Shown: piece by piece, positions 3,901-58,829 of the stretch
Position numbering within the stretch: position 1 is the stretch's first letter
How the letters are laid out: each line of letters starts with the position of its first letter
Source: Carcharhinus longimanus
Lineage: Eukaryota
Length of the DNA: 64,000 nucleotides
Assembly: GCA_030264375.1 (NCBI GenBank)
Contig: JASCQW010000190.1
Coordinates: 25,666,409 to 25,730,408 of the forward strand
Direction: 5' to 3'
Notes under the pieces: model-generated
Seen by the model: only the letters and a program-made list of their open reading frames with translations
The model's database searches: none
What the model was told of the DNA's origin: nothing
Program-made: the position numbers and the translations under genes

Positions 3901-4884
3901 GCGATTTGTGAATTTGAAAGGTCTGTATAAATACACATCACTGGTTTAAAATTTTCTGTTTCAGTTATTGGAGCAGATTTTTATCATCCCTCCAGCTAGC
4001 TGTACTGGATCACCCTAATGGCCAAGTGATGCTTCACACCTGGTTTTTGTTTTTACACCCAAGAACATTTGATCTTCTCTTGTTTTGAAACACTGGTCGG
4101 AGTTTTCCAGCCATTTCTGCCGGCGTCAACGGGTTTTCCAGTGGGGAAGAGGGTGCATAAAATGGGAAACCCATTGACCACGTTGGGATCAGAAGATCCT
4201 GCCACCAGCCAGTGGGAAGCTGCTTTCACCACCATGAAACACACTGCAAGGGGATGGAAAAATGTCATGTTAACTCCAATTCTCTAAAAAAAAAATGCTG
4301 CCTGACCTGCTATTTCAAACAAGTTTTGATTTTATTTCAGATTTTCAACATGTCGTATTTTGTTTCTGTATTCACTTGATGCATCTTTCATTTAAACTCT
4401 TTCTGGGAATGTGGATGTGTCACCGCTCCTTGTATCCTGTTAAGTTGGATCATGTTTATTCAGTGTCACCCCCACAAGGCAAACCATTCAGGTTGCTCAA
4501 TATGTAACATCCATCAGCTCAGGATGGTTTCATCGATGTGGCAGACATTCGTGTTTTGATTACTCCCAACCTTACAGCTTTGGCTGAAGTTTGTTTGAAC
4601 GACTTTTAGGCCAGTCCCATTGAGCTATTTTAAAATAAATCCCTTCCAAGTTATCCTTCTCCCTGTTAACTGTTCCAACGCACGTCATCCTGCAATCTAA
4701 TGAAAGGGAAGCATCGAAGTAAGACACTAAAATAAAACAAAGTGTGAACGCTGGGAATCTGTAATATAAACCAACGATGCTGGAAATACTCAGCAAGCCA
4801 AACAATATCTTTAGAGAGGGGAACAGAGTTAGGGGCAAAGTTTTAATGAAAAAGTTGGCATTTAGACTGGATGGAAGTGTGTGT

Positions 4885-5199
4885 CATAGAAAACCTACAG
4901 CGCAGAAGGAGGCCATTTGGCCCATTAAGTCTTCAGTGACCATAATTCCAACCAGACCCTATCCCCACAACCCCATATCTTTAACCTGCTAATCCCCCTG
5001 ACACTAGGGTCAACTTAGCATGGCCAATCAATCTGACCCGCACACCTTGGGACTGGGGAGAAAACCGGAGCACCCGGAGGAAACCATGCAAACGTGGGGA
5101 GAATGTGCAAACTCCACGCAGATAGTGACCTGAGGTCAAAATTGAACCCAGGTCCCTGGCACTGTGAGGCAGCAGTACGAACCCATGTGGCACCCGTGT
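4885..5199 (-). mobile_element. HE1-type tRNA-derived V-SINE
   Basis: Reverse complement shows the tRNA-like head, central gggtttcctccgggtgctccggttt domain and CR1-like tail ending ttctatg. Confidence 0.85.
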
Positions 5200-6854: not shown

Positions 6855-7480
6855 GGGTTTTGATTTGATTTATTGTCACACATAGTGGGATAGAGTGAAA
6901 AGGGCGACGTGGTGGCACAGTGGTTAGCACCGCTTCGTCACAGTGCCAGGGACGCTGGTTCGACTCCTGGCTTGGGTCATTGTCTGTGCGGAGTCTGCAT
7001 GTTCTCCCTGTGTCTGTGCGGGTTTCTTCTGGGTGCTCCCACACAGTCCAAAAAGATGCATTGGCCATGCCACACTCTTCCTCAGTGTACTCAAACAGGC
7101 GCCAGTGTGTGGCAACTGGGGGATTTCATTGCAGTATTAATATAAGCCTACTTGTAATAAAGTATTGCTTCTTGCGCTATACAAAGCATACCATTCATAG
7201 GGTACATAGTGGAGAGCAAAAGGGGATGGTACAGAATGTAGTGTTAGTCATAGCTGGGGTGTAGAAAAAGATCAACTTAATGCAAGGTAGATCCATTCAA
7301 AAGTCTGATGGCAGCAGAGAANNNNNNNNNNNNNNNNNNNNNNNNNNNNNNNNNNNNNNNNNNNNNNNNNNNNNNNNNNNNNNNNNNNNNNNNNNNNNNN
7401 NNNNNNNNNNNNNNNNNNNNNAAAAGTCTGATGGCAGCAGGGAAGAAGCTGGTCTCGAGTCAGTTGGCATGCAACCTCAG
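6855..7480 (-). mobile_element. LINE 3' fragment (Rex1/Babar-like), host of the SINE
   Basis: tttgatttgatttattgtcac tail and gttcaaaagtctgatggcagcagggaagaagctg-like segment typical of antisense Rex/Babar ends; family call from memory. Confidence 0.45.
6902..7161 (+). mobile_element. V-SINE, alternative-tail subfamily, nested in a LINE 3' fragment
   Basis: A box tggcacagtgg, B box ggttcgactcc, tail ttcattgcagt...gcctacttgtaataaa. Host sequence 6855-6901 resumes at 7161. Confidence 0.8.
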
Positions 7481-8664: not shown

Positions 8665-9710
8665 CAAACAATTAAAGGAAGACATTAACAAACTTGCAGA
8701 ATGGGCAAATAATTGGCAAATTATCCATTCAAGTTGGATACATATGAGCTAGTACATTCAGGTGAGAAGGACATGGAGGTGCAAGTCTGGATGGAGTAGA
8801 GTAATAAATGGATTTTGGAGCACAAGTACATTAATCAATAAGAGATGCACCACAAGTTAGAAAGGCCATAAATAAAACAAATCAAACATTAGGTTTTATT
8901 GCCAGAGGGATAAAGTTGAAAAGTAGGGAAGTTGTGCTAAACCTGTCTCAACTCTTGCATTAGGCTCTTGTCACCATATTATTATTATATTGAACCCTTG
9001 GAGGGGGCGCTGGGAAGATCTATAAGAATAATATCAGAAATGCATGGGTTTACAGTCTCAGGAAAGGATTGGCAGGCTGGGCCTTTTGGCTAGGATCAAG
9101 CCTGAGATCAGATGTAATATGTCAGTTCTTGTTGGCTTAAATCTAGAATGTCTCTCTTATGGGGGCCATGGATTTGATTGAATTTGTATTGGTCTTTGGA
9201 ACAAGCAAGGAGATGGATTAAGAGCTTACCATGTCTACTCTGTGCATTGGCTTTGTAACTCTGAGAATGGAATAACAGGTTTCCAAAAAAATTGATAGGC
9301 TGGGTTTCTTTTCGCGTGGAAGAAAAGCCTGAGGGGTGATTTCATAGAGGTCTTTAAAACTACAAAAGGTTTTGATAAATGGATAGAGAGAGAATGTTTC
9401 CTCTTTTGCAGAAGAGCAGAATTAGAGGCCATCAATATAAAATAATCGCCGAGAAATCCATTAGGAATTTCAGAAGAAACCTCTTCACTCAAAAGTGATA
9501 AGGAGGTGGAACTCAGTACCACAGGATGTGGCTGAAGTAAATGGTACGGATGCATTTAAGAGGAAACTCTTAACAATCTATGAGAAAGAAGGGAACAGGT
9601 GGATAGGATGGTAGACTTTGATAAGAAATGATAGGAGGAGGCTCAAGTGAAACATAAACATTGGCATGGACTTGTTGGGTCAAATGGTCTATTTCTGTGC
9701 TGTATATTGT
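8665..9710 (+). mobile_element. Old decayed CR1 3' portion, interrupted by the U2-derived element
   Basis: Remnants of ORF2 3' motifs (gaatgggcaaataattggcaa, ctgaggggtgatttcatagaggtctttaaa, tagaggccatcaatataa) and a 3' tail. Confidence 0.75.
9080..9290 (+). mobile_element. U2 snRNA-derived retroposon, copy 1 (SINEU-like), inserted in an old CR1
   Basis: GGCCTTTTGGCTAGGATCAAG matches the recalled U2 5' region at 20/21, with further U2-like blocks downstream. Oligo-A at 9285-9291. TSD attggcaggctggg (9068-9081) / attgataggctggg (9291-9304). Confidence 0.8.
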
Positions 9711-12207: not shown

Positions 12208-12503
12208 CAGCAAGATGGCACAGTAATTAGCACTGCTGCCTCACAGCGCAAGGGACCCAGGTTCGATTCCTGGCTTGGGCCACTGTCTGTGTGGAGTTTG
12301 CACGTTCTCCCCATGTCTGTGTGGGTTTCCTCCATATGCTCCAGTTTCTTCCCAGTTTGAAAACAAACATGGTTAGGTACATTGGCCATACTAAATTCTC
12401 CCTCAGTGTGCCTGAACAAGTGCCAGAGTGTGGCGACTAGGGGATTTTCACAGTAACTTCATTGCAGTGTTATTGTAAGCCTATTTGTGACTCATAAATA
12501 AAC
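12208..12503 (+). mobile_element. V-SINE, alternative-tail subfamily
   Basis: B box ggttcgattcc, V-domain, tail ggggattttcacagtaacttcattgcagtg...ataaataaa. Confidence 0.85.
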
Positions 12504-14304: not shown

Positions 14305-16808
14305 TTATTTCACATGTTCTGCAGTATGAGAAGAACAGTAATACTTCTTGTGAGCTATAAAAGTTGAAAGGCTACTGAACTTGATGTTGCACAAGCGACA
14401 GTATCTGTGGTTTCCATTCTGCACCGGGCTTGGGAGTGACATGGCTGTCTGAACAGATTTGTCAACATTCATGGCTGGGCTAAGGGATTTGAAACCTGGG
14501 TTCCTGGGACTTTCAGGCACTGGTAATATTTTCAAAGCAACATTAGGGGAGGGTGTCACTAAAGGTTTAGGTGAGATGTTTTGCAAAGGACTTTCAACTG
14601 ATGACTGGGAAGAGAGCGATTCTCTTTGATCTTTGGCATTCGGGATATTCTTCTGTATTTGAGCAACTGATTTGAGAGATGGGGCAGAAACTATGGAATT
14701 CTGAGGGCTGATTTCAGAAACACTGTTTGTCATGAGTTTACCTGGTGCTGAAATATCGTGCATTAAGCCATCTGCTGAGTGCCCAGTTGAAAGTTGCTTG
14801 GCCAACAACAAATCATGAACATTCTTAAAATGATCAATAAGGTCTCCTTCAATTGGTCCATTAAGTGGACAATAGGGGCAGATGACTGAATGAGTGCGCT
14901 GAGATGCTGAGAAGGTTTTAACATGGGGTGACATCTGAGGCCCATCTTGCAAAACATCTGAACTACTGTGATACATTCCTGGAGAGCTGTTGGGCGTAAC
15001 ACTGCCATGTACTATGTTTGGACTTTCTGGAATACATTTAGTGCTTATTTCATTTTTCTTCAATTCCTCAGTTTGTATTGGAGGGTCTGCATTTTCCACC
15101 CTATTTTTCTTGGCTTTTACTGAAGCTGATGCCTGCATCTTTACTCTGGCCAGATGCTCCACCTTGCTGTGCTGAAGAGCAGTAGCAGAGCAGTAATACT
15201 TTTTGTGAGTAAGATAGTTTTCTACATTGTTGAAACCAATTTTGCAGGAGGTACATTCATGATAGTCTGTTGAAAAGTGCGAGGCTGGACGCAAAGGGGC
15301 AACATGAATCAACGGTTCTTCCTGAATACGAGGCTTTTTGCTAAGATCAATTGGTCCATCAACATCCAAACTTGAACCTGGTGATGATGTTGCACTGGAC
15401 TGTGTTGTTAATATATAACCTGTTGATAGGGAAAGAGAATCTGATGACCTTGAAGAAAGTGAGAGAGCCTCTTGTTTAATTTTCAAAGGTTCCACATTGT
15501 TAGGTGGCCCAGCACTTTGAAGGATGGCAGCCGAAGGACTGTGAACAGGTACTTCACTTGGGGAAGGTGGAGGAAAGGGCTGATGGCTAGTACCATGAAT
15601 CTCATACAGTTTTCTACGTTTACGTGTACGTACAATTTGCTGAAGCATTGCCGCTTTTCCTCCGTTTGGCCTGCGAAGAGGGGGGTCATGTCTTGAAGCA
15701 CAATATAAACGCTTGTGGACCACATAAGTTTCATGCCGGGTAAACCTTATATTGCAGGCTTCACAGACAGTTTTTGAAGGGTCATCATCAAAATCTTCAA
15801 CGGAGTTGCTTGGACTTTGGCTGCCTTCACTGACTCTACTAACACTTTCCCCTTCAGATGAGGTATCCTTCATGGCACTGTCTTCACTTTTGATTTCTGG
15901 AGGTTTACTCTCAACATTTGGTGTCCGCAGGTCTCTTTCAGAGTCAGTCTGTGAGGAAGAAGCATGCTGGTTTTCTGTTCCAGAAGTTGGGCTGTGAATT
16001 ACTTGTTCATTTCTATGTGCGGGTGCAGAATCTTTCACAGCGTCATCGACAGTAGGGTTTTCTGCCTGCTGATGCCTGCTGGAACAGTAGAGTCGTTTGT
16101 GTGCCAAATAATTGTTGATATTATTGAATGTAATGTCACATTCATAGCATGTTGCTCCTTTTTGAATGGGTGCTCCTGCATAGAGAAGTGGATAGTTGTT
16201 GACTCCTTGCTTTAATCTGCTGTGGACCAGCTCAGACATCTTGGCTAAAATTTCAGAAGCTTGTGGAAATGTGGAAGTTTCATGACTGAACATGTATGGT
16301 ATCAGAACTGTTCCTTCAGGCATAATTGAACCTGTCCCGCAGTGGACAGGACTCGAGGCTGGTGTTGGGCTTGAACACTCCGATTTCACCTTTGCTATCA
16401 ATGTGCTTCTTGGTGATGAAACATTGGAAGATTGGTCAGGAGTAGGGGCTGTCTGACCCTCCACCATTGTCCTATCACCTTCACTTTCACACTGCAAATT
16501 GAGAGGCTCCTCTTTGACTTTCACAACTACGTCAAGTTCCTCGGAAACTTCTCTACTCAAAGCTGGAGATCTTCTGTCATCCCTGCCCTTTGTCTCCTCC
16601 ACATTGTGCCATGGCTCATCACCTTGATGAATCTCCATGTGCTTGGCCAACTCTGCAGCATTTCTTAGCTTCTCGTGGCACTGGCTGCACTGAAATGTAT
16701 CTTGTACAACATGCAATGAAATATGTTGCTGCAAGTTTGATTCAGAATCCCCAACATACTCACACTGGTTACACTTCAGGCTTAGGAAAGGACTTGCAAC
16801 CTTTACAC
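14305..16808 (-). CDS. ZFPM1: ZFPM1/FOG1 terminal coding exon: 7 zinc fingers, NLS, CtBP motif, stop codon
   Basis: Acceptor tttatcacag|GT, phase 1, open to TAA at 14305-14307. Contains ASEILAKMSELVHSRL; CCHC fingers CYEC..HKRLYC, CEAC..HKRLYC, CTSC..HKKYYC and CRLC..HKKYYC; C2H2 CPYC..HFKNVH; two extra N-terminal C2H2 fingers; ends SSHTAEHVK. Confidence 0.98.
15340..15354 (-). other. ZFPM1: PIDLS CtBP-binding motif of FOG1
   Basis: CCA ATT GAT CTT AGC in frame (GPIDLSKKPR), the established PXDLS CtBP motif of FOG proteins. Confidence 0.93.
15610..15630 (-). other. ZFPM1: Basic NLS RTRKRRK
   Basis: In-frame basic cluster after finger 6, at the position of the FOG-family NLS. Confidence 0.8.
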
Positions 16809-17161
16809 CTGTGATAAACAGATTACCACAAAAAGAAATATAAACAAAAGTTGTATAAATCCAGTATTATTTTCAGCTTTCATCCACTAAATAGAATTTT
16901 TAAAGTGTTATTAATTCTATACAGCCAATGCACAAATTGGAAATGTTTCTAAACTTGGATGTTACTTCCCCCATTGTTACTAACCTACATTACTTTTGCA
17001 ATTTTAAAATATGAACATTTTCCAACTTTTAAAAATAATTTTACGAAAGTATCATTTGATAAGTGATGCAATAAATAAGGAACAGACCGATCATTTGCCA
17101 TTTCAAGCTGACACTAAAATAGCAGGATATGGGACATTTCTAGCATGTGCTTGTTGCTTAC

Positions 17162-22739: not shown

Positions 22740-23515
22740 GTAAGTGTGAGGTGTTGCATTTTGGCAAGTCAAATCAAGGTAGGACTTTCACGATGAATGG
22801 TAGGATCGTAGGGAATATTGTGGAACACAGCGACCTTGGAGTTCAGGTGCATGGTTCTCTAAAGGTGGAGTCATAGACAGATAGGGCAGTGAAGAAGTCT
22901 GTTGGCATGCAGTACTTCATCAGGGCACGGAGTATAGAAGTTGGGAAGTTATGTTGCAATTGTACAAGATGTTGGTGAGGCCACACTTGGCGTAGTTTGT
23001 TCAGTTTTGGTTGCCTTGCTATAGGAAAGATGTTATTAAACTGGAGAGAGTAGTAGAGAAGAGATTTACAAGGATGTTGCCAGGTCTCAAGGGACTGAGT
23101 TAGAGGGAGAGCTTGGACAGACTAGCACTTTTTTCTTTGGACAATAGGAGACTGAGGGGTGTATAAGATCATGAGAGCATGGTTAGGGTGAACACATTCA
23201 GTCTTTTTCCTAGGGTTGGGGAAATCGAGAATTAAAGGCCATAGGTTGAGGTTAAGAGTGGAAAGACTTCATGGGAACCTGAGCAGCAACTTCTTTTACA
23301 CAGAGTGTGGACATATGTGGAATGAGCTGCCAGAAGAAGTGGCTGAGGCAGGGACATTGACACCATTTAAAAGGCATTTGGACAAATACACAGTTTGAAA
23401 AAGTTTAGAGGGATATGGGCCAAATGCAGGCAAACGGGAATAGCCTAGGTGAGCATTTTGGTCAGCATGGACCAGTTGGGCCAAAGGGCCTGTCTCCGTG
23501 TCGTTGATTCTATGA
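22740..23515 (+). mobile_element. CR1 LINE 3' portion
   Basis: KCEVLHFG, LVRPHL and WNELPEEVAEAGTLTPFKRHLD motifs; tail gggccaaagggcctgtctccgtg..gattctatga. Confidence 0.85.
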
Positions 23516-24258: not shown

Positions 24259-24406
24259 GTGGCATGGTGGCACAGTGGTTAGCACTGCTGCCTCACAGTG
24301 CCAGGGGCCCAGGTTCAATTCCAGCCTCAGGTCACTGTCTGTGTGGAGTTTGTACATTCTCCCTGTATCTGCATGGGTTTCCTCCCATTGTCCAAAGATG
24401 TGTGGG
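24259..24406 (+). mobile_element. V-SINE 5' part, running into an N gap
   Basis: ggcatggtggcacagtggttagcactgctgcctcacag...ggttcaattcc head. Confidence 0.85.
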
Positions 24407-26442: not shown

Positions 26443-27098
26443 CTGATCAATAAGAGAACAAACAACAGTCTGAAAACCAATGACAATGGCAACATTGAAA
26501 GGTATAATTTTTAAAGGCAAGTGAATGTGCACTAACTCAACATCAATCTTAAAGTTTCTGTTTCTTACAAAATAACAAAGGTATTTAGATCAACCACCAC
26601 TTCAATATTTAATTCCATTCAAGCTGAATTGCTGCAGCTTAAAGTAGAGATTGCAAATTAATTACATGCCAATTTAAATCGCTTCCTTCTAAAATCTATG
26701 TTCTTGTCCTGTGGTAAGAGGTTAATTCTATTACTTTCATTAATATATTGCCCCCGCCTGCCCCCTTGCTCCCAATCCAATTTCACAATGGCAACAATTT
26801 GTACCTGCTGCTTTTGGCAACTTTCCTCTAGTTTCTTTTTAATTTGATAAAAGCAAAATACTGCGGATGCTGGAATTTGAAACAAAAACAGAAAATGCTG
26901 GAAAACCTCAGCAGGTCTGACAGCATCTGACCAGTTTCAAAGGGTCATCCAGCATCAAAACNNNNNNNNNNNNNNNNNNNNNNNNNNNNNNNNNNNNNNN
27001 NNNNNNNNNNNNNNNNNNNNNNNNNNNNNNNNNNNNNNNNNNNNNNNNNNNNNNNNNNNNNNNNNNNNNNNNNNNNNNNNNNNNNNNNNNNNNNNNNN

Positions 27099-27172: not shown

Positions 27173-27725
27173 TTCAAACCATAGGTGAATTTCACCATTG
27201 ATGAGCAAGGCATGTTTCTTTGACATTCGGAAAGGTTCATCATCAAGGTTTTACAAGATTCCAACAGATTATTGCATGCAGTGACAGAGTTTTACAGAAG
27301 AAGCACCCAAAGTTGCTTAAAAGAACACAGAGCTGGAAAAATAAACACTTCATGTGGCTACGGTGGCAGGGTTGCCACACAAAGTATCTAATTGTGCTGG
27401 CTAGTTTTCTTCGTTCCATCTGAGGATTCACTTCCCCAGCCCAAAGTCAAGACTTCCAGCCAGAGACTGAACATATGGCTTGTTTAAGTGGAGATTCATC
27501 TCTTGACTAGCATCCTCCTCCCGTGAAAACATTACTACCATGTACAAGCTACAGAACTGAGTTATGGATAAAACATTCACATTACAGTGAAGTTGATAGT
27601 GTTCTACATTGTCTAAGAATGTAGTGGTGTTCAGAACTGTACTCAAAAATAAAAATTTGAACATTGAGGCAAAATGCACTCTCAGCTTGGTTTTCTTTGC
27701 TTGTTTCATGAATATTAAACCATTT

Positions 27726-27909
27726 CATAGAATCCTACAGTGCAGAAGGAGGTCATTCAGCCCATCAGTTATTCCACCCAGGCCCTATCCCCATGCATTT
27801 ACCGTAGCTAGTCCCCTTGATAGTAAATGGCAATTTAACATGGCCAATCCACCTAACTTGCATATCCTTGGACGATGGGGAGGAACAGTGGGAATCGAAC
27901 CTGGGTCCC
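27726..27909 (-). mobile_element. HE1-type SINE, internally deleted
   Basis: catagaatcctacagtgcagaaggagg tail, agcatggccaatccacc-like core, gggaatcgaacctggg B box (reverse). Confidence 0.75.
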
Positions 27910-27984: not shown

Positions 27985-28870
27985 CCATTGCTGAATCCCT
28001 GACTATTAACATTCTGGGGGTTACCACTGACCAGCAAATTAACTGGAATAGCCAAATAAGCACTGTGGCTACAACAGCAGGTTAGCGGCTCGGAATTTTG
28101 TGGCAAGTAATTCATGTCCTGGCTCCCCAGAACTTGTCCACAGTCGACAAGGCACAAGTCAGGAGTGTGATGGAACACTCTCCGCTTGCCTGGATGGGTG
28201 CACCTCCAACAATATTGAAGAAACTTGACGTCATCCAGGACAAAGCAGCCNNNNNNNNNNNNNNNNNNNNNNNNNNNNNNNNNNNNNNNNNNNNNNNNNN
28301 NNNNNNNNNNNNNNNNNNNNNNNNNNNNNNNNNNNNNNNNNNNNNNNNNNATGGAACACTCTCCGCTTGCCTGGATGGGTTCACCTCCAACAATATTGAA
28401 GAAACTTGACGTCATCCAGGACAAAGCAGCCTGCTTGACTGGCAACCCTACCACCGCCTTCAATTTACACTCCCTCCACCACTGACGCACAGTGCCAGCA
28501 GTGTGCACCAACTACAAGATACACTGCAGCAACTCACCAAGGTTCCTTCGACAGCACCTACCAAAACCACGGTCTCTACCACCTAGAAGAGCAAGGGCAG
28601 CAGTTACATGGGAACACCACCACGAACAAGTTCCCCTTCAAACCACACACCCTCCTGATTTGGAACAATATCACAATTCCTTCGCTGTTGCCAGATCAGA
28701 ATCCAGGAGCTCTCTTCTTAACAGCACTGTGGCTGTTCTAACACCATATGGGCTGCAGCAGTTCAAGGTGGCGGCTCATCAATACCTTCTCAAAGGCATT
28801 TCTGCATTTATGAACGGACAATAAATATTGGCCTAGCCTGCAATGCCCACCTGCCATAAACAAACAAATT
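27985..28870 (+). mobile_element. CR1-clade LINE, second family, 3' portion
   Basis: KAQVRSVMEHSPLAWMGAPPTILKKLDVIQDKAACL; 3' end gcagcagttcaaggtggcggctcatca...caataaat. Confidence 0.8.
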
Positions 28871-28930: not shown

Positions 28931-29220
28931 TTTATTTATTAAAAGTGTCACAAGCAGGCTTACATTAATTAACAATGCAATACAGTTACTGTGAAAATCC
29001 TTTATCTGGCAAACTCTAGCTTCTGTTCAAGTACACTGAGGGGCAATTTAGCATGGCCAATGTGCCTAACCAGCACGTCATTCGGATTGTGGGAGGAAAC
29101 CCACACTGACATGGGGAGAATGTGCAGATTCTGCACAAACAGTGACCCGAGCCAGGAATCGAACCTCGGTCCCTGGTGTGGTGAGGCAGCAGTGCTAACC
29201 ACTGTGCCACTATGCTGCCC
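28931..29220 (-). mobile_element. V-SINE, alternative-tail subfamily
   Basis: Reverse complement of the 12208-12503 type. Confidence 0.85.
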
Positions 29221-29283
29221 ATTCAGTATGTGATTGGAAAAAATGTAAACTACAATGCAGTATTCAGAATGATATTCTGATTT

Positions 29284-29630
29284 GGGTGGCACGGTAGCAT
29301 AGTGGTTAGCACTGCTGCTTCGCAGCTCCAAGGACCTGGGTTCAATTCCCGGCTTGGCTCACTGTGTGGAGTTTGCACATTCTCCCCGTGTCTGTGTGCG
29401 TTTCCTCCGGGTGCTTTGGTTTCCCCCCACAGTCCAAAGATGTGTGGGTTAGGTTGATTGGCCATGCTAAAATTGCCCTTAGTGTCCTGAGATGCATAGG
29501 TTAGAAGGATTAGTGGGTAAATATGTAGGGATATGGGGGTAGGGCCTGGGTGGGATTGTGGTCGGTGCAGGCTCCATGGGCCAAATGTCTTCTTTCTGTA
29601 CTGCAGGATTTCTATTCTTCTATTTCTATG
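29284..29630 (+). mobile_element. HE1-type V-SINE, full length
   Basis: Head, V-domain, ggcctgggtgggattgtggtcggtgcag and a ttctat-type tail. Confidence 0.88.
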
Positions 29631-31159: not shown

Positions 31160-31538
31160 CAAGCTGACAGCTGTGTACAAAATAATGAGAGACATGGACA
31201 GAGTGGATAGGGAGCAGCTGTTCCCCCTAATTGAAGGGTCAGTCACAAGGAGACATAGGTTCAAGGTGAGTGGCAGGAGGTTTAGCAGGAATTTGAGGAA
31301 AAACAATTTTTTTACCCAGAGGGTGGTGACGGTCTGGAATGCACTGCCCAGGAGGGTAGTAGAGGCAAGTTGCCTCACATCCTTAAAAAGGCATATGGAA
31401 GAGCATTTGACACATCATAACATTCAGGGCCACGGGCCAAGTGATGGTAGATGGGATTTGATGGGGGTTCAGGTGTTTCTAATGTATTGGTGTGGACTCG
31501 ATGGGCCGAAGGGACTCCTCTGCGCTGTACGATTCTAG
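31160..31538 (+). mobile_element. CR1 LINE 3' end
   Basis: YKIMRDMDRVDREQLFPL..TRRHRFKV..FFTQRVVTVWNALPRRVVEA, the ORF2 C-terminus, followed by a tail. Confidence 0.87.
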
Positions 31539-33445: not shown

Positions 33446-33682
33446 TGTTGACAACTGCAGTAGCTAATATTGCAGCCATGCCCGCTTGCTGAGGAAGAAG
33501 CTGGATGTCAGAATGTAATGAAGCAGGGTAAGTGGTCGCTTGCTCCGAGCACTCTGCAGGCTCCACTGGCTCCATCTTAACACTTAGATTTAACACAGGG
33601 TAATTGTTACTCTGATCAACAATTGCTGTTAAACATTCTCCTTCTGCGATGGGCTTAGTGGTTTTGCACCAGATCTGATTAT
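33446..33682 (-). CDS. ZFPM1: ZFPM1/FOG1 coding exon (exon 6 equivalent)
   Basis: Acceptor ttttcctctacag|AT, donor AACA|gtaagt, 237 nt, phase 1 to 1. Encodes NQIWCKTTKPIAEGE...DIQLLPQQAGMAAILATAVVN(K), a FOG-family signature. Confidence 0.95.
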
Positions 33683-34261
33683 CTGTAGAGGAAAACAAGA
33701 CACTTTTGTGAAACAGTTCTGAAGTGTTCTAACAGTGCCAGAGCTTGGTAATACATCCAAAACATTCTATAAATCTGCAGCAGATAGTATTTATTGTTTG
33801 CTAGGGGACTGAGTTCATTTATTTACCACCCCCTCCTCCACTTATTTTCTGATTTTGTTCACTCAGAATAGAGGATTGAATTTGTTCTGATTTTTGCTTC
33901 CTTTCCTCTCCAGGGCTTCAGATTTGGTCTCAATTGAGGGGACAAGTCACCTTCCTCATCAGAAATTTCCATCAGCTCTGATATTGTTCATAGATTGGGG
34001 ATCTGATCCTACCTACCCTAGAGACGCAGTTAGTTAACTGGAACTTAAATCAATTGGGGGAGGACCACTGGGGACAATGGGAATGATCGATACGCAGACC
34101 AGGAGCCTCATAAAGGTGAAGAAATGAGAGAATACTTCTGTCAACCTACCTTAACCAACTTGTACAAACCTGGCTATTAGCTCAGGCTCAAAGGCCAAGG
34201 TTGCTGCAAGTAAGTAGTTCACAACACCAGGTTAAAGTCCAACAGGTTTATTTGGTAGCAC

Positions 34262-38135: not shown

Positions 38136-40236
38136 AAAATCACATTGTATTTCTGACAGACCAGGGTCTATAATTTAGATATTAATTTTATCATGAAGCA
38201 CATACAAGAAACACTATCTAATTAATGAATTAGCTATCATAAACTAAATCATATTTTAACATATAAGCAGAGCCCATCTTCTGCTGTCCATGCATTTTTA
38301 TCACTCCCATTTGAACTAAGTTGGTCATTAGACTGCAGCAACAAACCGTTTCTCTGTTCTGACTTGAAAAAGGAACCTGAACATCAATAAAGGGATGTTA
38401 CACAATATGTGCACACATTTCAAATAACAAAGTGGTTGTTTTGTATCAATCCTCAGGAAGCTCATCCATCCAGTAGTCAAAAGGATGTGATGGAAAGTCT
38501 TTTGCACCCCTGATAATGGAAAACCCCAGACTGATGGCCCATTGTGATCTTCCCAGAGAACCTATTTGACATGGTCAAAAAAATCCTTTAATTTCAAAAT
38601 AGAATTGATTGGTGCTGGTTGGAGAACTTGCCCCAAGACAAACCAGCCCATTGTGATCTGAACTACCCGGGCATAGTCCGTATTTGGAATGTGGCAAAAA
38701 CAGGACAATGCTTAAATGTTTGGTGACAGAAATTCAGATGAAGCATTTAATGATGCACAAACACTTTTATTGCTCTGTTAAGTAAAAGCAAACCAATGTT
38801 TGCATTGATTCCTATCCTTGTTTTTTTAAGGAAAGCTTTTCATAAAATCTGGAAAAATACTTATATACAGGTAATGGCATTAGAAATGCTTGACACAATT
38901 GGCGAGTTATTAGTTTCAGATGGTGCTTATGCATATAAATGTACAAAATATAATGACGACTTGAAAAGGAAATATAGAATCTGGAGAGATAGGAGATCTT
39001 AAGGTTTGATTAGTAGACCAGTTATTAAAAGTTATTGGGCTATAATTTGTCGTAATAGTGGTGTATGCCGTTAATTAGATTTGCTCCTGCACATTTAGCT
39101 TTTAATATTTTTCTGCAAAGAACATTGTTGAAAATGTGAGCTAATAATGTGAGAGCAAGGGGAAACAGGCATCTGCAGCCCAGGTGAACAGGGCAAATAA
39201 TCAACTATTCAGATTGAAGAGTCGTGAAATAAGCAGCACAAGGACTGAGAAGCAAGCACAATTTAGAGTGGGTCAATTCAATCAGCCAGACCTTGGTAGA
39301 ATGATGGGTTTAACAGCACACAGCATTGTTAAACTGGTTAGCAACTTCTGGTGATTCCAAATGCGCAATTAAACATGGAAACCAGAAAGCTGTCCGAGTT
39401 ACATTGCTCTTGAAGCTGGATGAGAATGGTATCTTGCTGAGAGACTTGCATTGAAACATATGGGTACAGTGTTAAGTTGCAGTACTTAAGTGATAAATAC
39501 CCACTACACTTGCCAGAAGAAAATGATGACTTGTCCATTTCAGCACAAGTAAATTTTTATTGCTATGTTAAGTCTTAACTGCTGTCAAACAACACACAGG
39601 CACAGAAAATTAATGTACATCTGTGGTGGCCACTACTTCAGATTTAGCATTAGCATTAGAGATTTAAAGTAAACATATATATTTTACTTGATCTTATCTT
39701 CTTGCATCTCTCTTCTAATTTAGTCTTTCTTTAGATCCCTTTATTTTCTCTGTACCTGATTTGACATTAAGTTAAGAATTTAGCTGCCACTTTCTGGAAA
39801 TGCTGTTCATTAACCTTCATGTGGGTTAATTAAGGCGATACAAACAAATTGTTCGTCCTAGCCCAGAGCTCTGTAGTGTGCAGAACGCCTTTTGGTTCTC
39901 CAGTTACATCAGGTTCCAGTGCAAAAAGCCAAGTGGGCGAGTGCAAATATAACAAATTATGTGTGCCATTGATTCTCTGCTATTCGCAACATCTAGTCCA
40001 AAGTCAAATCAGGTATAGAAAGAGAAATAAAGAGAAGGAAAGTGAAAAAAAGAATGAGAAAAAAATGAGACAAAAAAAACTCAAAATGATCAAAACCACG
40101 AATGAATGAATGAAATGTCACACCTGTAATAATTAATTTTCAGTAGCTGAGGGGTTGATTGGCATTAATTAACACATAGCATGTCATTAAAACTTTAAGA
40201 CTCAAAATTATATGACTCAACTTTGTGTGGCGAGTT

Positions 40237-40454
40237 AACCAAATGAAGTGTCAGATCAAGCTCAAGATAGGGTCAAGGCCTTATCCTGTCAACTTGGGTC
40301 TTATTTGTCTCTCTTGAAGGGACCTTGAATTGGATTCAATTGGATTTTGAATTTGGTTTTTGGAGCAAGCAGGGAATAGATTTGCATTTGCCCAATTTAT
40401 TCTGAACACTGGCACTGCAACTTTAAGGATGGAGTAAAATTTTTTTTAAATTGG
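40237..40454 (+). mobile_element. U2 snRNA-derived retroposon, copy 2
   Basis: Colinear with copy 1 (agatcaagctcaagat, tgtctctctt, ggtttttggagcaagca, aacttt..ggatggagtaa). Perfect 12-bp direct repeat gtgtggcgagtt at 40225-40236 and 40455-40466. Confidence 0.7.
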
Positions 40455-41230
40455 GTGTGGCGAGTTTGGCTCATGTCTATCATATAAATAAAGCATCTTC
40501 ACACCATCCCAACCACTTCAATGCAAGGACAAAGCATTCCAGATGCTGAAAATCTGAATACAAACTGAAAGTTCTGGAAATGCTCAGCAGTTGTGGTAAC
40601 ATCTAAGGCAAAGAGAAACAGAATTAGTGCTTCAGGCTGGCGACCCTTCACCAGAATAGCAGTTCAAACGAGAGATCAACTCAGCATTTTAACCCTGTTT
40701 CTCACAGACATCAGGTCTGCTCAGTATTGCCAGCATTTTCTACTCTTAATGCACTTCAGACAGTAAGGTGATCTTTTTGCAAAGGTGATGTTTTTGTAAA
40801 GCTAACAGTGGGGTGGTACAACTGGGATATGTGGATATTTGTGTTTAACTGGGCATTGGTGATTCTCCTGAAGTCGCTGTACAGTTCATGGGTTGAAAGC
40901 GACAAGTGGCATTAGCCTCACTGTTATTCCAAGAGCAAAATCAAGCCCACTGAAATGTAAAGTTAATGGTGGCAGACGGACAGATTTTCCGATGAGAAAA
41001 TTCCCCCTTCCGATATATAGAATTGGTTTCTACAACAACTTCTCTCAACAGAGTAATGCCGAAATAAGTTTATTCTTGATTGGAGTTGTTTACATTTTCA
41101 GTAGGCTTGATGATTGAAAGTTTCCCATCCTAAAGCTTTTTCAAAGCATCAGAAAAGCAGTAAGCTTAACCAAAATGAAATTTGGCCAACATACAATATA
41201 CTCTTAAGAGTTGACAGAAAGAACACACAC

Positions 41231-41333
41231 CTTTGCAGTAGATGGTGCAATTGGCCGATTCTTCATTCACCGTTACTTTCAGTTGTCTTAACCAGCACCA
41301 TTCGTCCTTCAGCTGCAGGGTCACAGTAACACA
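41231..41333 (-). CDS. ZFPM1: ZFPM1/FOG1 coding exon (exon 5 equivalent), PR/SET-like domain; not in ORF track
   Basis: Acceptor ttttctccctgcag|TGT, donor AAAG|gtgtgt, 103 nt, phase 0 to 1, which fits both neighbouring exons. Encodes CVTVTLQLKDEWCWLRQLKVTVNEESANCTIYCK(D), with the CWLR...AN motif of FOG1. Confidence 0.9.
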
Positions 41334-41571: not shown

Positions 41572-42670
41572 CCAACAACGCCAACTTAAATTTATATAGT
41601 GTCTTTATTGTAATAAGACATTCCAAGATGCTGCATAGGAGCATTATAAATATGACACTGAGCTGCATAAGGAGATATTAGGGCAGAGCCCCAACCACTT
41701 AGTCCAAGAGCCAAGAAAGAGCGTCTTAGAGAGATAGGGCGGTATGGAGGTGTAGGATGGGATAGGCAGAGCATAGGGCCTCGGAACTGAAAGCCCTCAA
41801 TGGTGAAGTAATCATGAATCAGGGATGCTGAAGACGCCAGAATCAGATAAATGCTAGTATCTCAGAGGGTCTCGGAGGAGTTAAAAAGAAAGGGAAGAGT
41901 GAGAATTTTATCATGACATTGTTTGATTGGGAACCAGTCAGGTCCGTAAGCACAGGCATGGTAGTTGAATGGGATTTGATGTCTTGAACATCAGAGTGTG
42001 TGGGAGTTTGGGGCAGAGTGGTTAGCACTGCTGCTTCACAGCTCCAGGGACCTGGGTTCAATTCCCGACTTGGGTCACTGTCTGTGTGGAGTTTATACAT
42101 TCTCTTCATGTCTGCGTGGGTTTCCTCCGGGTGCTCTGGTTTTCTCCCGCAGTCCAAAGATGTGCAGGTTAGCTTGATTGGCCATGCTAAAAATTGCCCT
42201 TTAGAGTCCTGAGATGCAAAGATTAGAGGGATTAGCAGGTAAATATGTAGGGATATGGGGGTAGGGCCTGGGTAAGATTGTGGTCAGTGCAGATGCAATG
42301 GGCCCAATGGTCTTTTCTGCACTGTAGAGTTTCTATGATTGGTCAGGAGTGCATTGGAATAGTCAAGTCTTCAGGGAACAAAGGCATGATTTGAGGGTTT
42401 CAGCAGCAGATGAGCTGAGTTGGGTATGGCTGGGCAAAGTTAGAGAGATAAAAAAAAAGCATTTTTAGCAATGGTTCACTTGTGTGTCATAATTGACTTA
42501 TCCAAATCAATTAGGACACCAAGTTTGGGAACAGGCTAGTTTTGTCTCAAATCGCAGCCATCGAACGGAATGAAGTCAGTAGCAGGAACGGAGTTTACAG
42601 CAGGAACCAAAACGGATGCCTTCAGCTTTTCCAATATTCGACAAGAGGAAATTTCTGCTCATCCAGTACT
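41572..42670 (-). mobile_element. L2 LINE 3' portion, interrupted by a SINE
   Basis: Reverse L2 tail caacaac..tttatatagtgtcttt; continues after the SINE (cattggaatagtcaagtct..ggtttcagcagcagatgagctgag). Confidence 0.65.
42011..42340 (+). mobile_element. HE1-type V-SINE nested in an L2 fragment
   Basis: Closely similar to 29284-29630. Confidence 0.88.
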
Positions 42671-47924: not shown

Positions 47925-48281
47925 ACCAAAGCTCTCCTTTTTGGGGAAAGGGACTTGCAGAGTTGGGAAGGGAAGTGTGAGGGGAGTACTGAGAAATGAA
48001 AATGTTCCCCACAAAAGGTCTGTATAATGAAATTCATTGGAATATTTTATAAAAAGGCAGCACCTATCTCACAAGCTGCAATAAAATACAAGAATGGGGA
48101 GTCCATTTTATTAGGGGTACCATGAATATCAATTGCTTGGCAGTATGCAGAAACAAATTAACTTTTTTATATGAGGCAAGAGGGAAAACATTGCTCATCA
48201 TATGCTGATCAGAACAGACTCAATAAGGTCCTTCAAACCTACCAGCTCTTTTGGGGATGACAGTGAATCATGCAACTCTTA

Positions 48282-48590
48282 GGGCGGCACAGTGATTAGC
48301 ACTGTTGCCTCACAGCGCCAGGGACCTGGGTTCAATGCCAGCCTCAGGTCAGTGTGCAGAGTTCTCCCAGTGTCTGAGTGGGTTTCCTCCTGGTGCTCCA
48401 GTTTCCTTCCACAGTCCAAAGACGTGTGGGTTAGAATGATTGGCCACGCTAAAATTGCCCCTTAGTTTCAGGAGGACGAGCAGGGCAAATACACGGGCTT
48501 ATGGGAATAGGGCCTGGGTGGGATTATTGTCAGTGCAGGCTCAATGGGCCAAACGTCATCCTTCTGCACTGAAAGGATTCTATGATTCTA
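48282..48590 (+). mobile_element. HE1-type V-SINE
   Basis: gggcggcacagtgattagcactg head through ggattctatgattcta tail. Confidence 0.87.
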
Positions 48591-57095: not shown

Positions 57096-57355
57096 TTTAT
57101 CTATTAGTATCCCAAGTAAGCTTATAATAACACTGCAATGAAGTTACTGTGAAAATCCCCTAGCTGCCACACTCTGGCACCTGTTCAGGTACACTGAGGG
57201 AGAATTTAGCATGGCCTACATCTTTTGGACTGTGGGAGGAAACCCTCACAGATATGGGGAGAACGTGCAGACTCTGCACAAACAGTGACCCAAACTGGGA
57301 ATCGAACCCAGATCCCTGGCCCTGTGAAGTAGCAATGCTAACTACTGTGCTGCCC
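57096..57355 (-). mobile_element. V-SINE, alternative-tail subfamily
   Basis: Reverse complement of the 12208-12503 type. Confidence 0.83.
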
Positions 57356-58829
57356 TATTTGCATTTGCAGAGATACCACTTACACTACAGATCCACACTC
57401 ATCCCATATTCCTAAAACATCCAAAACGCACAATAATGTTTGCAAAAAGACAAAACCTCGCCACAGATTGGCTCGTACAGTTTCACCCCTCCACCCACAA
57501 ACGGCGTCTTGTAACTCACCAGATACCTGAGCAACGTGGGGTCAGTCTTTGAATGACTATTTTCCAAGGCCTCTCCTGCCCCTCACCCCCTCAAAATACT
57601 TCACGGCTGCCAAACAGCCATCCCAAGTCTGGAGGCAAAATGCAAATAAATTCCAAATAGTCACAGCTCCCAAGGATGGGAAAATGATTGTTTTTTTTTA
57701 AAAACAGCTCCATTCAGGGAAGCTAGGAGATCACAGGCCAGTCAAATTGGTGCTCCCCTCATTAAAAAAAAGTATTAGAAACTTATTACTTGGATTACCG
57801 CAATTTCATTGATCTAATTTTATTTTGACTTCAGTTTTGTAGGCTTTCATTTGATGTTTATAATTCGGAAAGCATAATGACAGGATGACAGATTAAGAGC
57901 AATGTGACATTGATGTAAACTTAATTCCTGATTACTGGAGACGTAGTGGGAAGTGTGGGAGAGTGGTCTGGGGAAGGGAAGATGACTAGACATATAAAAA
58001 AAAAGTGGATTGTTGCTGCTAATTGCTGAAGTTTCTGCCAACATGGGATGATCTATCCCTGCATGGAATCAGACATATAGAATGAAGGCCACGTAGCTAA
58101 CAGTTTATAAAATAAACTCAAGGAAGTATTACATGCTGCGTGATTAATTGCATTTTTTTTTCAGGGGCAGGGAAGGGTTATTCACTCGGATTATTCATCA
58201 GGAATTCAAAGAAAGTGCACCATGAATGATCCTTATTGGCACAGCACAGTAATAATTTAGCAAGACATTTTTGCCGAGAAAGAAAGCCAGAAATAAATTA
58301 AATAAAACTTGCTCCAAAATAATTTGCTTGACAATAGGATCAATGGAAAACACCTCATAAATGCCTAAACTTTGTGGTCAGTTAATATCAGAACTGGAAA
58401 TGTTGAGTACATCTCCGAGACACATTGGAAGATAAATGACCAAACCATACCTCAAGGATGACACAAACTTTAGGGCTGGAATGTAACTGTTCCATAAAAA
58501 TGGCAAGAAAAGCGATGATTTGTTTTATATTTAAAGAAAAAGAAAAGCCAGAGATTGAGTAAAGACACTGAAAAGAGGATCAGATGAGGGCATGACAACT
58601 AACTGCGCACAAATGCAAAACTGCAAAATACGTTTCTCTTGTCTCAGCTTTTAAGCAAGAAGTCAACTTATTTGATTTGGAAAGAATGACAGTGAAGAGC
58701 AGAGGTAAGTTGTGATATTATTCTCATTGCTAGCAGCACGGTAACTGCCCAGCTGTGTGCACAAGGGTTGGTGACTAAGATTAATCATTTTTCTTTGAAA
58801 AGGTGTGTAAAATAGTCAGAGGAATGTCT

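Follow-up and report, generated by a model that had tools for sequence, protein, structure and literature searches.

A probable SINEU-like family of U2-derived retroposons in sharks, with an old copy in an intron of ZFPM1

Within the literature that we searched, SINEs headed by snRNA sequence are otherwise known from crocodilians only, and of these SINEU-3 is the nearest to the shark element described here. In the parts of PMC4494074 available to us, SINEU-3 is short, almost wholly derived from U2 and characterised by changes common to its copies; it has an A-tail, oligo-T inside, tandem insertions and no internal promoter, and the matter of how SINEU are transcribed without such a promoter is left open. 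These features recur in the shark element, the A-tail being seen in copy 1. Peculiar to SINEU-3, by the same partial account, are an internal U2 deletion of ~50 bp after nucleotide 32 (keeping 32 and 83 bp), a 40-bp non-U2 end and insertion into Mariner-N4_AMi. This description sets the shark element apart, which retains U2 32-85 (copy 1 aligns across it) and has grown by small insertions, one copy lying within the remains of a LINE and the other in intronic sequence that is nearly unique. SINEU-1 and SINEU-2 offer a further likeness in that snRNA pieces have repeatedly been added at the 5' end and partly duplicated (PMC4494074, same parts), as the segment at 40239-40251 suggests for the shark element, but U1 pieces or a 3' half of non-snRNA origin are found in them, whereas no U1 piece was noticed in the shark copies (no U1 match in Rfam) and they have no long foreign 3' half. 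The parts of that paper at hand report that no SINEU was detected outside crocodilians.

Other known systems also bring U2 sequence into contact with retrotransposition. Processed U2 snRNA pseudogenes, tailless or with poly-A, likewise consist of U2 between target duplications, but they are independent copies of the normal gene, whereas the shark copies share insertions and are far more abundant. Keno, of the Tx1 clade, and Utopia are LINEs whose insertion target is the U2 gene, and they are associated with pieces of U2 near nucleotide 38-39 (PMC4640811, accessible portion); both are protein-coding and have U2 halves on either side, whereas in the shark element the U2 sequence is itself the insert, and Keno's clade is the one to which we would assign the shark element's partner.

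The window analysed, a stretch of 64,000 nucleotides from Carcharhinus longimanus, holds two copies of the element (Table 1), which probably belong to a SINEU-like, U2-derived and non-autonomous retroposon family of sharks, copy 2 being an old member. Copy 2 sits between direct repeats inside an intron of ZFPM1, in near-unique surroundings. An 853-aa frame at 14305-16866 on the minus strand carries ZFPM-type zinc fingers and has shark ZFPM1 as its closest relatives (Mustelus asterias 96%, Carcharodon 90%), with 70% to Callorhinchus and 41% to Alligator, so that by this protein the host is most likely a carcharhiniform shark; seven ZFPM1 coding segments were mapped on the minus strand. The exon mapping bears out the initial annotation in placing copy 2 antisense in the intron at ~0.8 kb from the exon (about 765 bp). 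Copy 1 lies outside the coding span of the gene, roughly 5 kb past the stop codon (14305), and interrupts a LINE remnant that has tblastx matches to LINE-like remnants at 23216-23500 and 31203-31310 and that we take to be CR1. No ORF of at least 110 aa lies over either copy, and the two target sites have no evident motif in common.

Table 1. Coordinates of the two element copies, their parts and their surroundings in the window
Feature	Positions	Strand	Remarks
Copy 1	9082..9290	+	209 bp; U2 positions about 13-181, common insertions, 7-A tail
Left target-site duplication, copy 1	9063..9081	+	15/19 identical to 9286-9304; 12/14 for 9068-9081 / 9291-9304
Right target-site duplication, copy 1	9286..9304	+	15/19 against left
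Degenerate LINE ORF2 remnant into which copy 1 is inserted	8700..9700	+	translated frame continues across duplicated target
Next ZFPM1 coding exon, closing the intron of copy 2	33447..33683	-	tblastn 96%
Left target-site duplication, copy 2	40219..40236	+	15/18 identical to 40449-40466; exact 12-bp core 40225-40236
Copy 2 body, U2-derived SINE-like element	40237..40448	+ (U2-sense)	antisense to ZFPM1; 212 bp
Putative extra 5' U2 fragment, absent from copy 1	40239..40251	+	U2 21-34; 11/14, one gap
U2 23-31-like unit, then 12-nt insertion of the family	40252..40272	+	copy 1 insertion at 9101-9112, 8/12 to U2 20-31
Reiterated units similar to U2 93-104, the segment of the Sm site	40328..40361	+	local repeats
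Common 4-nt insertion just after the Sm site	40362..40371	+	motif in window + strand solely at 9198 and 40362
Copy 2 3' end common to copy 1	40414..40450	+	loop motif of U2 stem-loop IV no longer present; tail short and A/T-rich
Right target-site duplication, copy 2	40449..40466	+	15/18 against left; core 40455-40466
ZFPM1 coding exon upstream of copy 2	41232..41333	-	aa 136-169 of Mustelus protein; tblastn 34/34 identical

The two copies are homologous. They are identical at 126 of 184 aligned positions (68%; difference 32%), and the similarity is recovered by blastn (E 2e-6) and by nhmmer (E 3.8e-12 from copy 1, and 1.2e-11), with a local score of 165 where the best of 500 shuffles reached 104, so that the interior alignment first made by eye is upheld at an nhmmer E of ~1e-11 and by the shuffle test. 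Similarity ends at the element borders, the flanks and target repeats being unrelated, and the different repeat around copy 1 (9068-9081 / 9291-9304) agrees with the earlier claim that copy 2 is a separate insertion.

For the comparison with U2 we used loci fetched by a U2 5' motif (129 in all; 20 of 20 tested match Rfam U2) and a reference, L005 (Rfam U2 190.7 bits), which is not the host's own U2 and which we take from its look to be of vertebrate type. Copy 1 is of U2 origin: it aligns over U2 8-181 and is identical to the reference at 119 of 165 positions (72%; nhmmer E 3e-10), its local score of 130 stands against a shuffle maximum of 78, and it matches a profile of 89 U2 sequences at E 5.5e-7. 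Copy 2 alone gives an nhmmer E of 1.6 against U2, a score that 3 of 500 shuffles reach, and no match to the 89-sequence profile. Its U2 ancestry is therefore shown indirectly, through its homology to copy 1, through its paralogs and through the 5' piece, and the initial description of copy 2 as U2-derived holds by that route, although the copy is not detectably U2-like by itself. Among the paralogs the majority letter is that of U2 at 9 of 11 listed places in 40286-40398, and copy 2 has the U2 letter at one of the 11. At the gap of the 5' piece, organisms E and F have one more base, which is the U2 base and raises the match to 12/14 (p about 0.003); the piece is putatively a 5' addition made by a template switch or a tandem duplication. 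An Rfam scan returned no U2 in the whole window, nor around either copy at E<=10, and the snoRNA-level matches around the copies lay below gathering scores and were treated as chance. A functional U2 snRNA (RF00004) was rejected on the same lack of a covariance-model match at E<=10 and because both copies are without the branch-point-pairing hexamer and the loop IV motif; nor does either fold better than shuffles (z -0.38 for copy 2 and +0.91 for copy 1).

The three-way alignment of copy 1, copy 2 and U2 that the initial annotation had called for yields derived indels common to the copies, together with an excess of shared substitutions (p 0.007). Within the 121 columns compared, which were limited to U2 positions up to 150, 66 are invariant and 9 are different in all three; in 16 the copies agree with each other against U2, in 20 copy 2 alone departs from the other two and in 10 copy 1 alone does so; the 16 common non-U2 bases compare with about 7.8 expected from independent decay, and since the reference is not the host's U2, some of them may be differences of the host U2 itself. 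The indels are the stronger evidence for common derivation. Where the copies have no U2 partner, 27 of 40 columns are identical between them. The 12-nt insertion falls after U2 31, near the branch-point helix, and the spacing to the next U2 anchor, which is 7 nt in 117 of 131 U2 matches (the remaining 14 yielded no anchor), is ~21 nt in copy 1. In the Sm-site region copy 1 has an insertion of 11 nt and copy 2 has 6 nt more, the units at 40328-40361 agreeing with U2 94-104 at 9/11, 9/11 and 7/10. The run earlier put forward as an Sm-like site retained in copy 2 is degenerate and without the A that precedes the T-run of U2, but Sm-like motifs are present at 40343 and 40350. The motif of the 4-nt insertion occurs in none of 89 U2 sequences. 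Insertions that are common to both copies and absent from the U2 genes checked point to descent from a modified U2 master; it was by such a sharing of structural changes that Kojima (2015, PMC4494074) set SINEU-3 apart from a sum of retrocopies, and the shark copies conform to it.

The perfect 12-bp direct repeat first noted around copy 2 is indeed exact (40225-40236 / 40455-40466), but it is merely the core of a decayed repeat of ~18 bp, as is indicated by its leftward extension to 15/18 and by the right repeat in organism F, which differs from the window at 40451, 40452, 40454 and 40462; at 40451 and 40454, two of the three mismatched places, it has the letters of the left repeat, and at two other places it departs from them. 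As no empty site was seen for copy 2, its target duplication is deduced from sequence only. An exact 12-bp repeat at such spacing, taken alone, is not rare in the window: exact repeats of at least 12 bp at a spacing of 180-280 bp number seven, namely that of copy 2, four unrelated ones and two beside an assembly gap. That one of them should by chance flank the element at either end, within 20 x 20 nt, has a probability of ~2.5e-4. The tail of copy 2 is just a T/A-rich remnant, while that of copy 1 is 7 A.

Abundance and age were approached through contigs from four of 22 runs (organisms A, C, E and F; B, D, G and H were left out), aligned at 80% likeness; one run, X1, may be the window's own source. 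Between 2173 and 3270 contigs aligned per run, some of them on other short repeats in the stretch, and the summed depth at 40338-40379 was about 4,900, 5,400, 17,400 and 8,400 times that of the unique flank in the four runs; since a ratio of summed depths is no copy number, we claim abundance only as 'thousands'. What has been amplified and dispersed, with long target duplications, is a modified U2 sequence. The contigs piled on the element are members of the family: of the 16 listed places in 40277-40418 at which the greater part of the paralog depth disagrees with copy 2, the majority letter is that of copy 1 in 14, the loose ends of the paralogs carry a 17-mer identical to copy 1 9244-9260, and derived letters at 40317 and 40372 are present in about 90% or more of paralog depth. 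The same insertion is present in relatives: organisms C and F show it at both junctions and E at the left one. At the right junction E has no contig cover and X1 is without depth in several places; such gaps at that junction, in X1 and X13, carry no weight as evidence. Presence in C, E and F means that the insertion of copy 2 predates those splits, and the suggestion that two copies in the window betoken an old, high-copy family is borne out on both counts, by thousands-fold depth in 4/4 runs and by an insertion older than the split from three relatives. The proposed search for an empty site found the orthologous insertion in all three relatives examined but no empty site, and among the joints listed for the four runs none skips copy 2. 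The divergence of orthologous pieces from the window is 1.2-2.2% in C, 3.8-5.0% in E and 4.2-6.5% in F, and the target duplications of the two copies have 7 mismatches in 37 places (19%, 95% interval 8-35%). Published shark rates are flagged by their authors, in the part of PMC9826928 at hand, as possibly underestimated. In sequences of other kinds, the 17-mer of the family had seven matches in viral contigs, which apart from the seed scored as background and were set down to chance, and a 21-mer had none in prokaryote genomes.

Two subfamilies, that of copy 2 carrying the extra 5' U2 piece, are hinted at by paralog contigs that align from 40246 and 40247, by a head-to-tail joint to 40245 and by two kinds of loose end at 40371. 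The difference of 32% between the copies exceeds the 19% decay of the repeats but lies within the 8-35% interval, so that subfamilies are suggested rather than proven; two copies only are readable in full, and nothing shows that dispersed copies served as masters.

In proposing how such a family could arise, we suppose that a U2 of the shark lineage gained insertions resembling tandem duplications, of 12 nt close to the branch-point helix, of 11 nt in the Sm site and of 4 nt behind that site, and that this modified U2, having lost the branch-point-pairing hexamer and the loop of stem-loop IV, may have become the master of a short non-autonomous retroposon. Its RNA would then have been copied to new sites by the target-primed reverse transcription of a LINE, leaving duplications of 14-19 bp and a short A-rich tail; thousands of copies would remain, and copy 2 would come from a sub-lineage that has an additional 5' piece of U2. 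An A-tail together with duplications of this length suits L1/Tx1 or RTE better than CR1 or L2. Tx1 is our best guess for the partner, because the whale shark has Tx1-like repeats and no full L1 (PMC8455134, in the portion available) and crocodilian SINEU are thought to use Tx1-Mar (PMC4494074, likewise in part), and we lean slightly towards retrotransposition by an enzyme of the Tx1/L1 clade. Neither copy has a usable internal Pol III promoter: the 9-mer at 9094 that resembles a B box is disrupted in copy 2 and is not preceded, within the element, by anything like an A box, and there are T-runs inside. Transcription was probably by Pol II from outside, under a U2-type promoter at the master locus or from a read-through or flanking promoter. 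More than one master may have been active, and template switching may have supplied the 5' piece.

The main rival to descent from a retroposon master is that the copies are processed pseudogenes of one or a few variant shark U2 genes with an upstream snRNA promoter of their own, no copy having ever been a master. We consider this unlikely, but several observations lean towards it: the element spans nearly the whole of U2 (about 13-181) and no LINE-derived tail was found, a usable internal Pol III promoter is absent, and the same ambiguity was raised by Kojima for a full-length 7SL family (PMC7245038, in its accessible part). The tail of copy 1 at 9279-9290 also matches the beginning of the consensus for the snRNA 3' box (PMC9006982), a resemblance that we treat as a weak lead, given that the last three letters are missing, that the match is confounded with the A-tail and that copy 2 has none. 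Set against variant-gene pseudogenes are the thousands-fold depth in four organisms, the suggestion of two structural types (the 5' U2 piece in the paralogs of copy 2 and the two loose ends at 40371) and the loss from both copies of the branch-point hexamer and loop IV motif. A further proposal for the source, which we hold to be unlikely, is a variant U2 transcription unit that is still extant, with an upstream snRNA promoter and a multiplied Sm-site segment, whose RNA could not read branch points and which would have seeded thousands of copies and kept capturing U2 fragments at the 5' end, evolving independently of crocodilians. Were it real, such a source would show directly how promoter-less SINEU-type elements get transcribed.

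The remaining alternatives fare much worse. That the copies are two unrelated retrocopies of ordinary U2, alike through U2 ancestry alone, might be entertained because U2 retrocopies with poly-A and target duplications are known (PMC4494074, in part) and because the identity of copy 1 to U2 (72%) is much the same as its identity to copy 2 (68%); it is largely refuted by the three common insertions and common 3' end, by the fixed U2 spacing and the absence of the 4-nt motif from U2 noted above, and by the derived letters that the paralogs carry at 40317 and 40372. Segmental duplication or chance similarity, to which the chance occurrence of exact 12-bp repeats at such spacing might seem to lend something, is refuted by a similarity (E about 1e-11) that is confined to the element between unrelated flanks. 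That copy 2 has been exapted for the regulation or splicing of ZFPM1, or persists as a source of small RNA, seems to us very improbable: copy 2 is kept at the orthologous site in three related organisms, and ZFPM1, a developmental regulator, has an exon 0.8 kb away from it, but at a flank divergence of 1-7% any fixed insertion should still be in place, copy 2 is farther than copy 1 both from U2 and from the paralog majority, and its folding is no better than that of shuffles. Nothing that we found supports a role for copy 2 or for its antisense position in ZFPM1, and it is most likely an old, fixed and neutral fossil insertion.

In its features the shark element answers to the SINEU class, having a U2-derived 5' region, a non-coding length below 500 bp (209 and 212 bp), changes common to its copies and a high copy number. 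It was rejected as a member of SINEU-3 proper, there being no ~50-bp deletion and no Mariner target, while the ZFPM1 of the window is 96% identical to that of Mustelus asterias and 41% to that of Alligator, and the shark family apparently arose separately from crocodilian SINEU. A classical Pol III SINE with a 7SL, tRNA or 5S head was also rejected, with no Rfam or ARAGORN match and no paired A and B boxes. The literature searched, mostly at title level and with Repbase and Dfam outside the search, contains no shark U2-derived element: there is no shark case in the parts available of PMC5381603, PMC5753468, PMC8143547 and PMC7245038, neither 'snRNA' nor 'SINEU' occurs in PMC5499810 on chimaera and shark SINEs, nothing relevant appears in the portion at hand of PMC9826928 with its supplement or in the supplement of PMC12361510, and the summary table of whale shark repeats gives no family names. 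The family may already stand unnamed in Repbase, Dfam or RepeatModeler libraries.

The significance lies with the family rather than with copy 2. An abundant U2 family in sharks, built differently from that of crocodilians, would make the birth of snRNA-headed SINEs a repeated event, would offer a second system in which to study master loci, promoter and partner LINE, and would provide presence/absence markers for shark phylogeny. Within the window, a candidate third copy at about 1955-2160 on the minus strand was borderline and was rejected: its combined score is 8.14, where the highest null scores of 12 controls were 5.0-8.0, three of these controls reached the score of 98 that it has against copy 1, and nhmmer missed it. 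In organism E there are head-to-tail joints, from 40446 to 40245 and from 40450 to 40278, and head-to-tail joints are reported for SINEU also (PMC4494074, in the parts available).

Contig joints in run X13, a sequencing run of organism E, a relative of the host, run from the 3' end of the U2-derived element in the ZFPM1 intron (copy 2) back to 40245 and 40278, within window 40246-40450. These joints suggest that head-to-tail tandem copies exist elsewhere in the organism E genome. In the orthologous contig of that organism (record 16 of the run), 511 letters ahead of window position 40540 are not among the listed alignments, suggesting a lineage-specific insertion or rearrangement immediately to the right of copy 2.

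A further decayed repeat, presumably Penelope-like from its appearance, starts about 70 bp past copy 2 in the window; it is kin to a second segment there, and its depth is moderate in all runs. The window also holds a possible, very decayed third copy of the U2-derived family. Among the tiles left over it scored best when compared with U2 and with copy 1; its order is roughly collinear, its score is borderline against shuffles, and an nhmmer search of the window did not detect it. On metagenome contigs, five U2 genes (L002, L017, L053, L055 and L001, numbered loci selected by the U2 5' motif) have U5, SRP RNA, 5S rRNA or tRNA genes within about 300 bp.

Seven coding segments together cover residues 90-1237 of the Mustelus ZFPM1 protein, the first exons lying outside the window. 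About ten copies of an interspersed repeat of about 300 bp, which we take to resemble the shark V-SINE/HE1, also occur. The window contains 11 N gaps; one, of 100 N, has a copy of a near-identical 81-bp repeat on each side, which is probably an assembly overlap.

Features of the window
Feature	Positions	Strand
ZFPM1 coding segments	63184-63047, 41333-41232, 33683-33447, 32515-32261, 26446-26345, 17336-17160, 16812-14308	-
Candidate third U2-derived copy	1955-2160	-
Decayed repeat right of copy 2	40530-40740	
Its kin	26866-26928	
Interspersed repeat	4884-5195, 6899-7155, 12208-12502, 24259-24401, 27725-27886, 28931-29223, 29286-29622, 42012-42340, 48280-48590, 57096-57357	
81-bp repeat	28170-28250, 28351-28431
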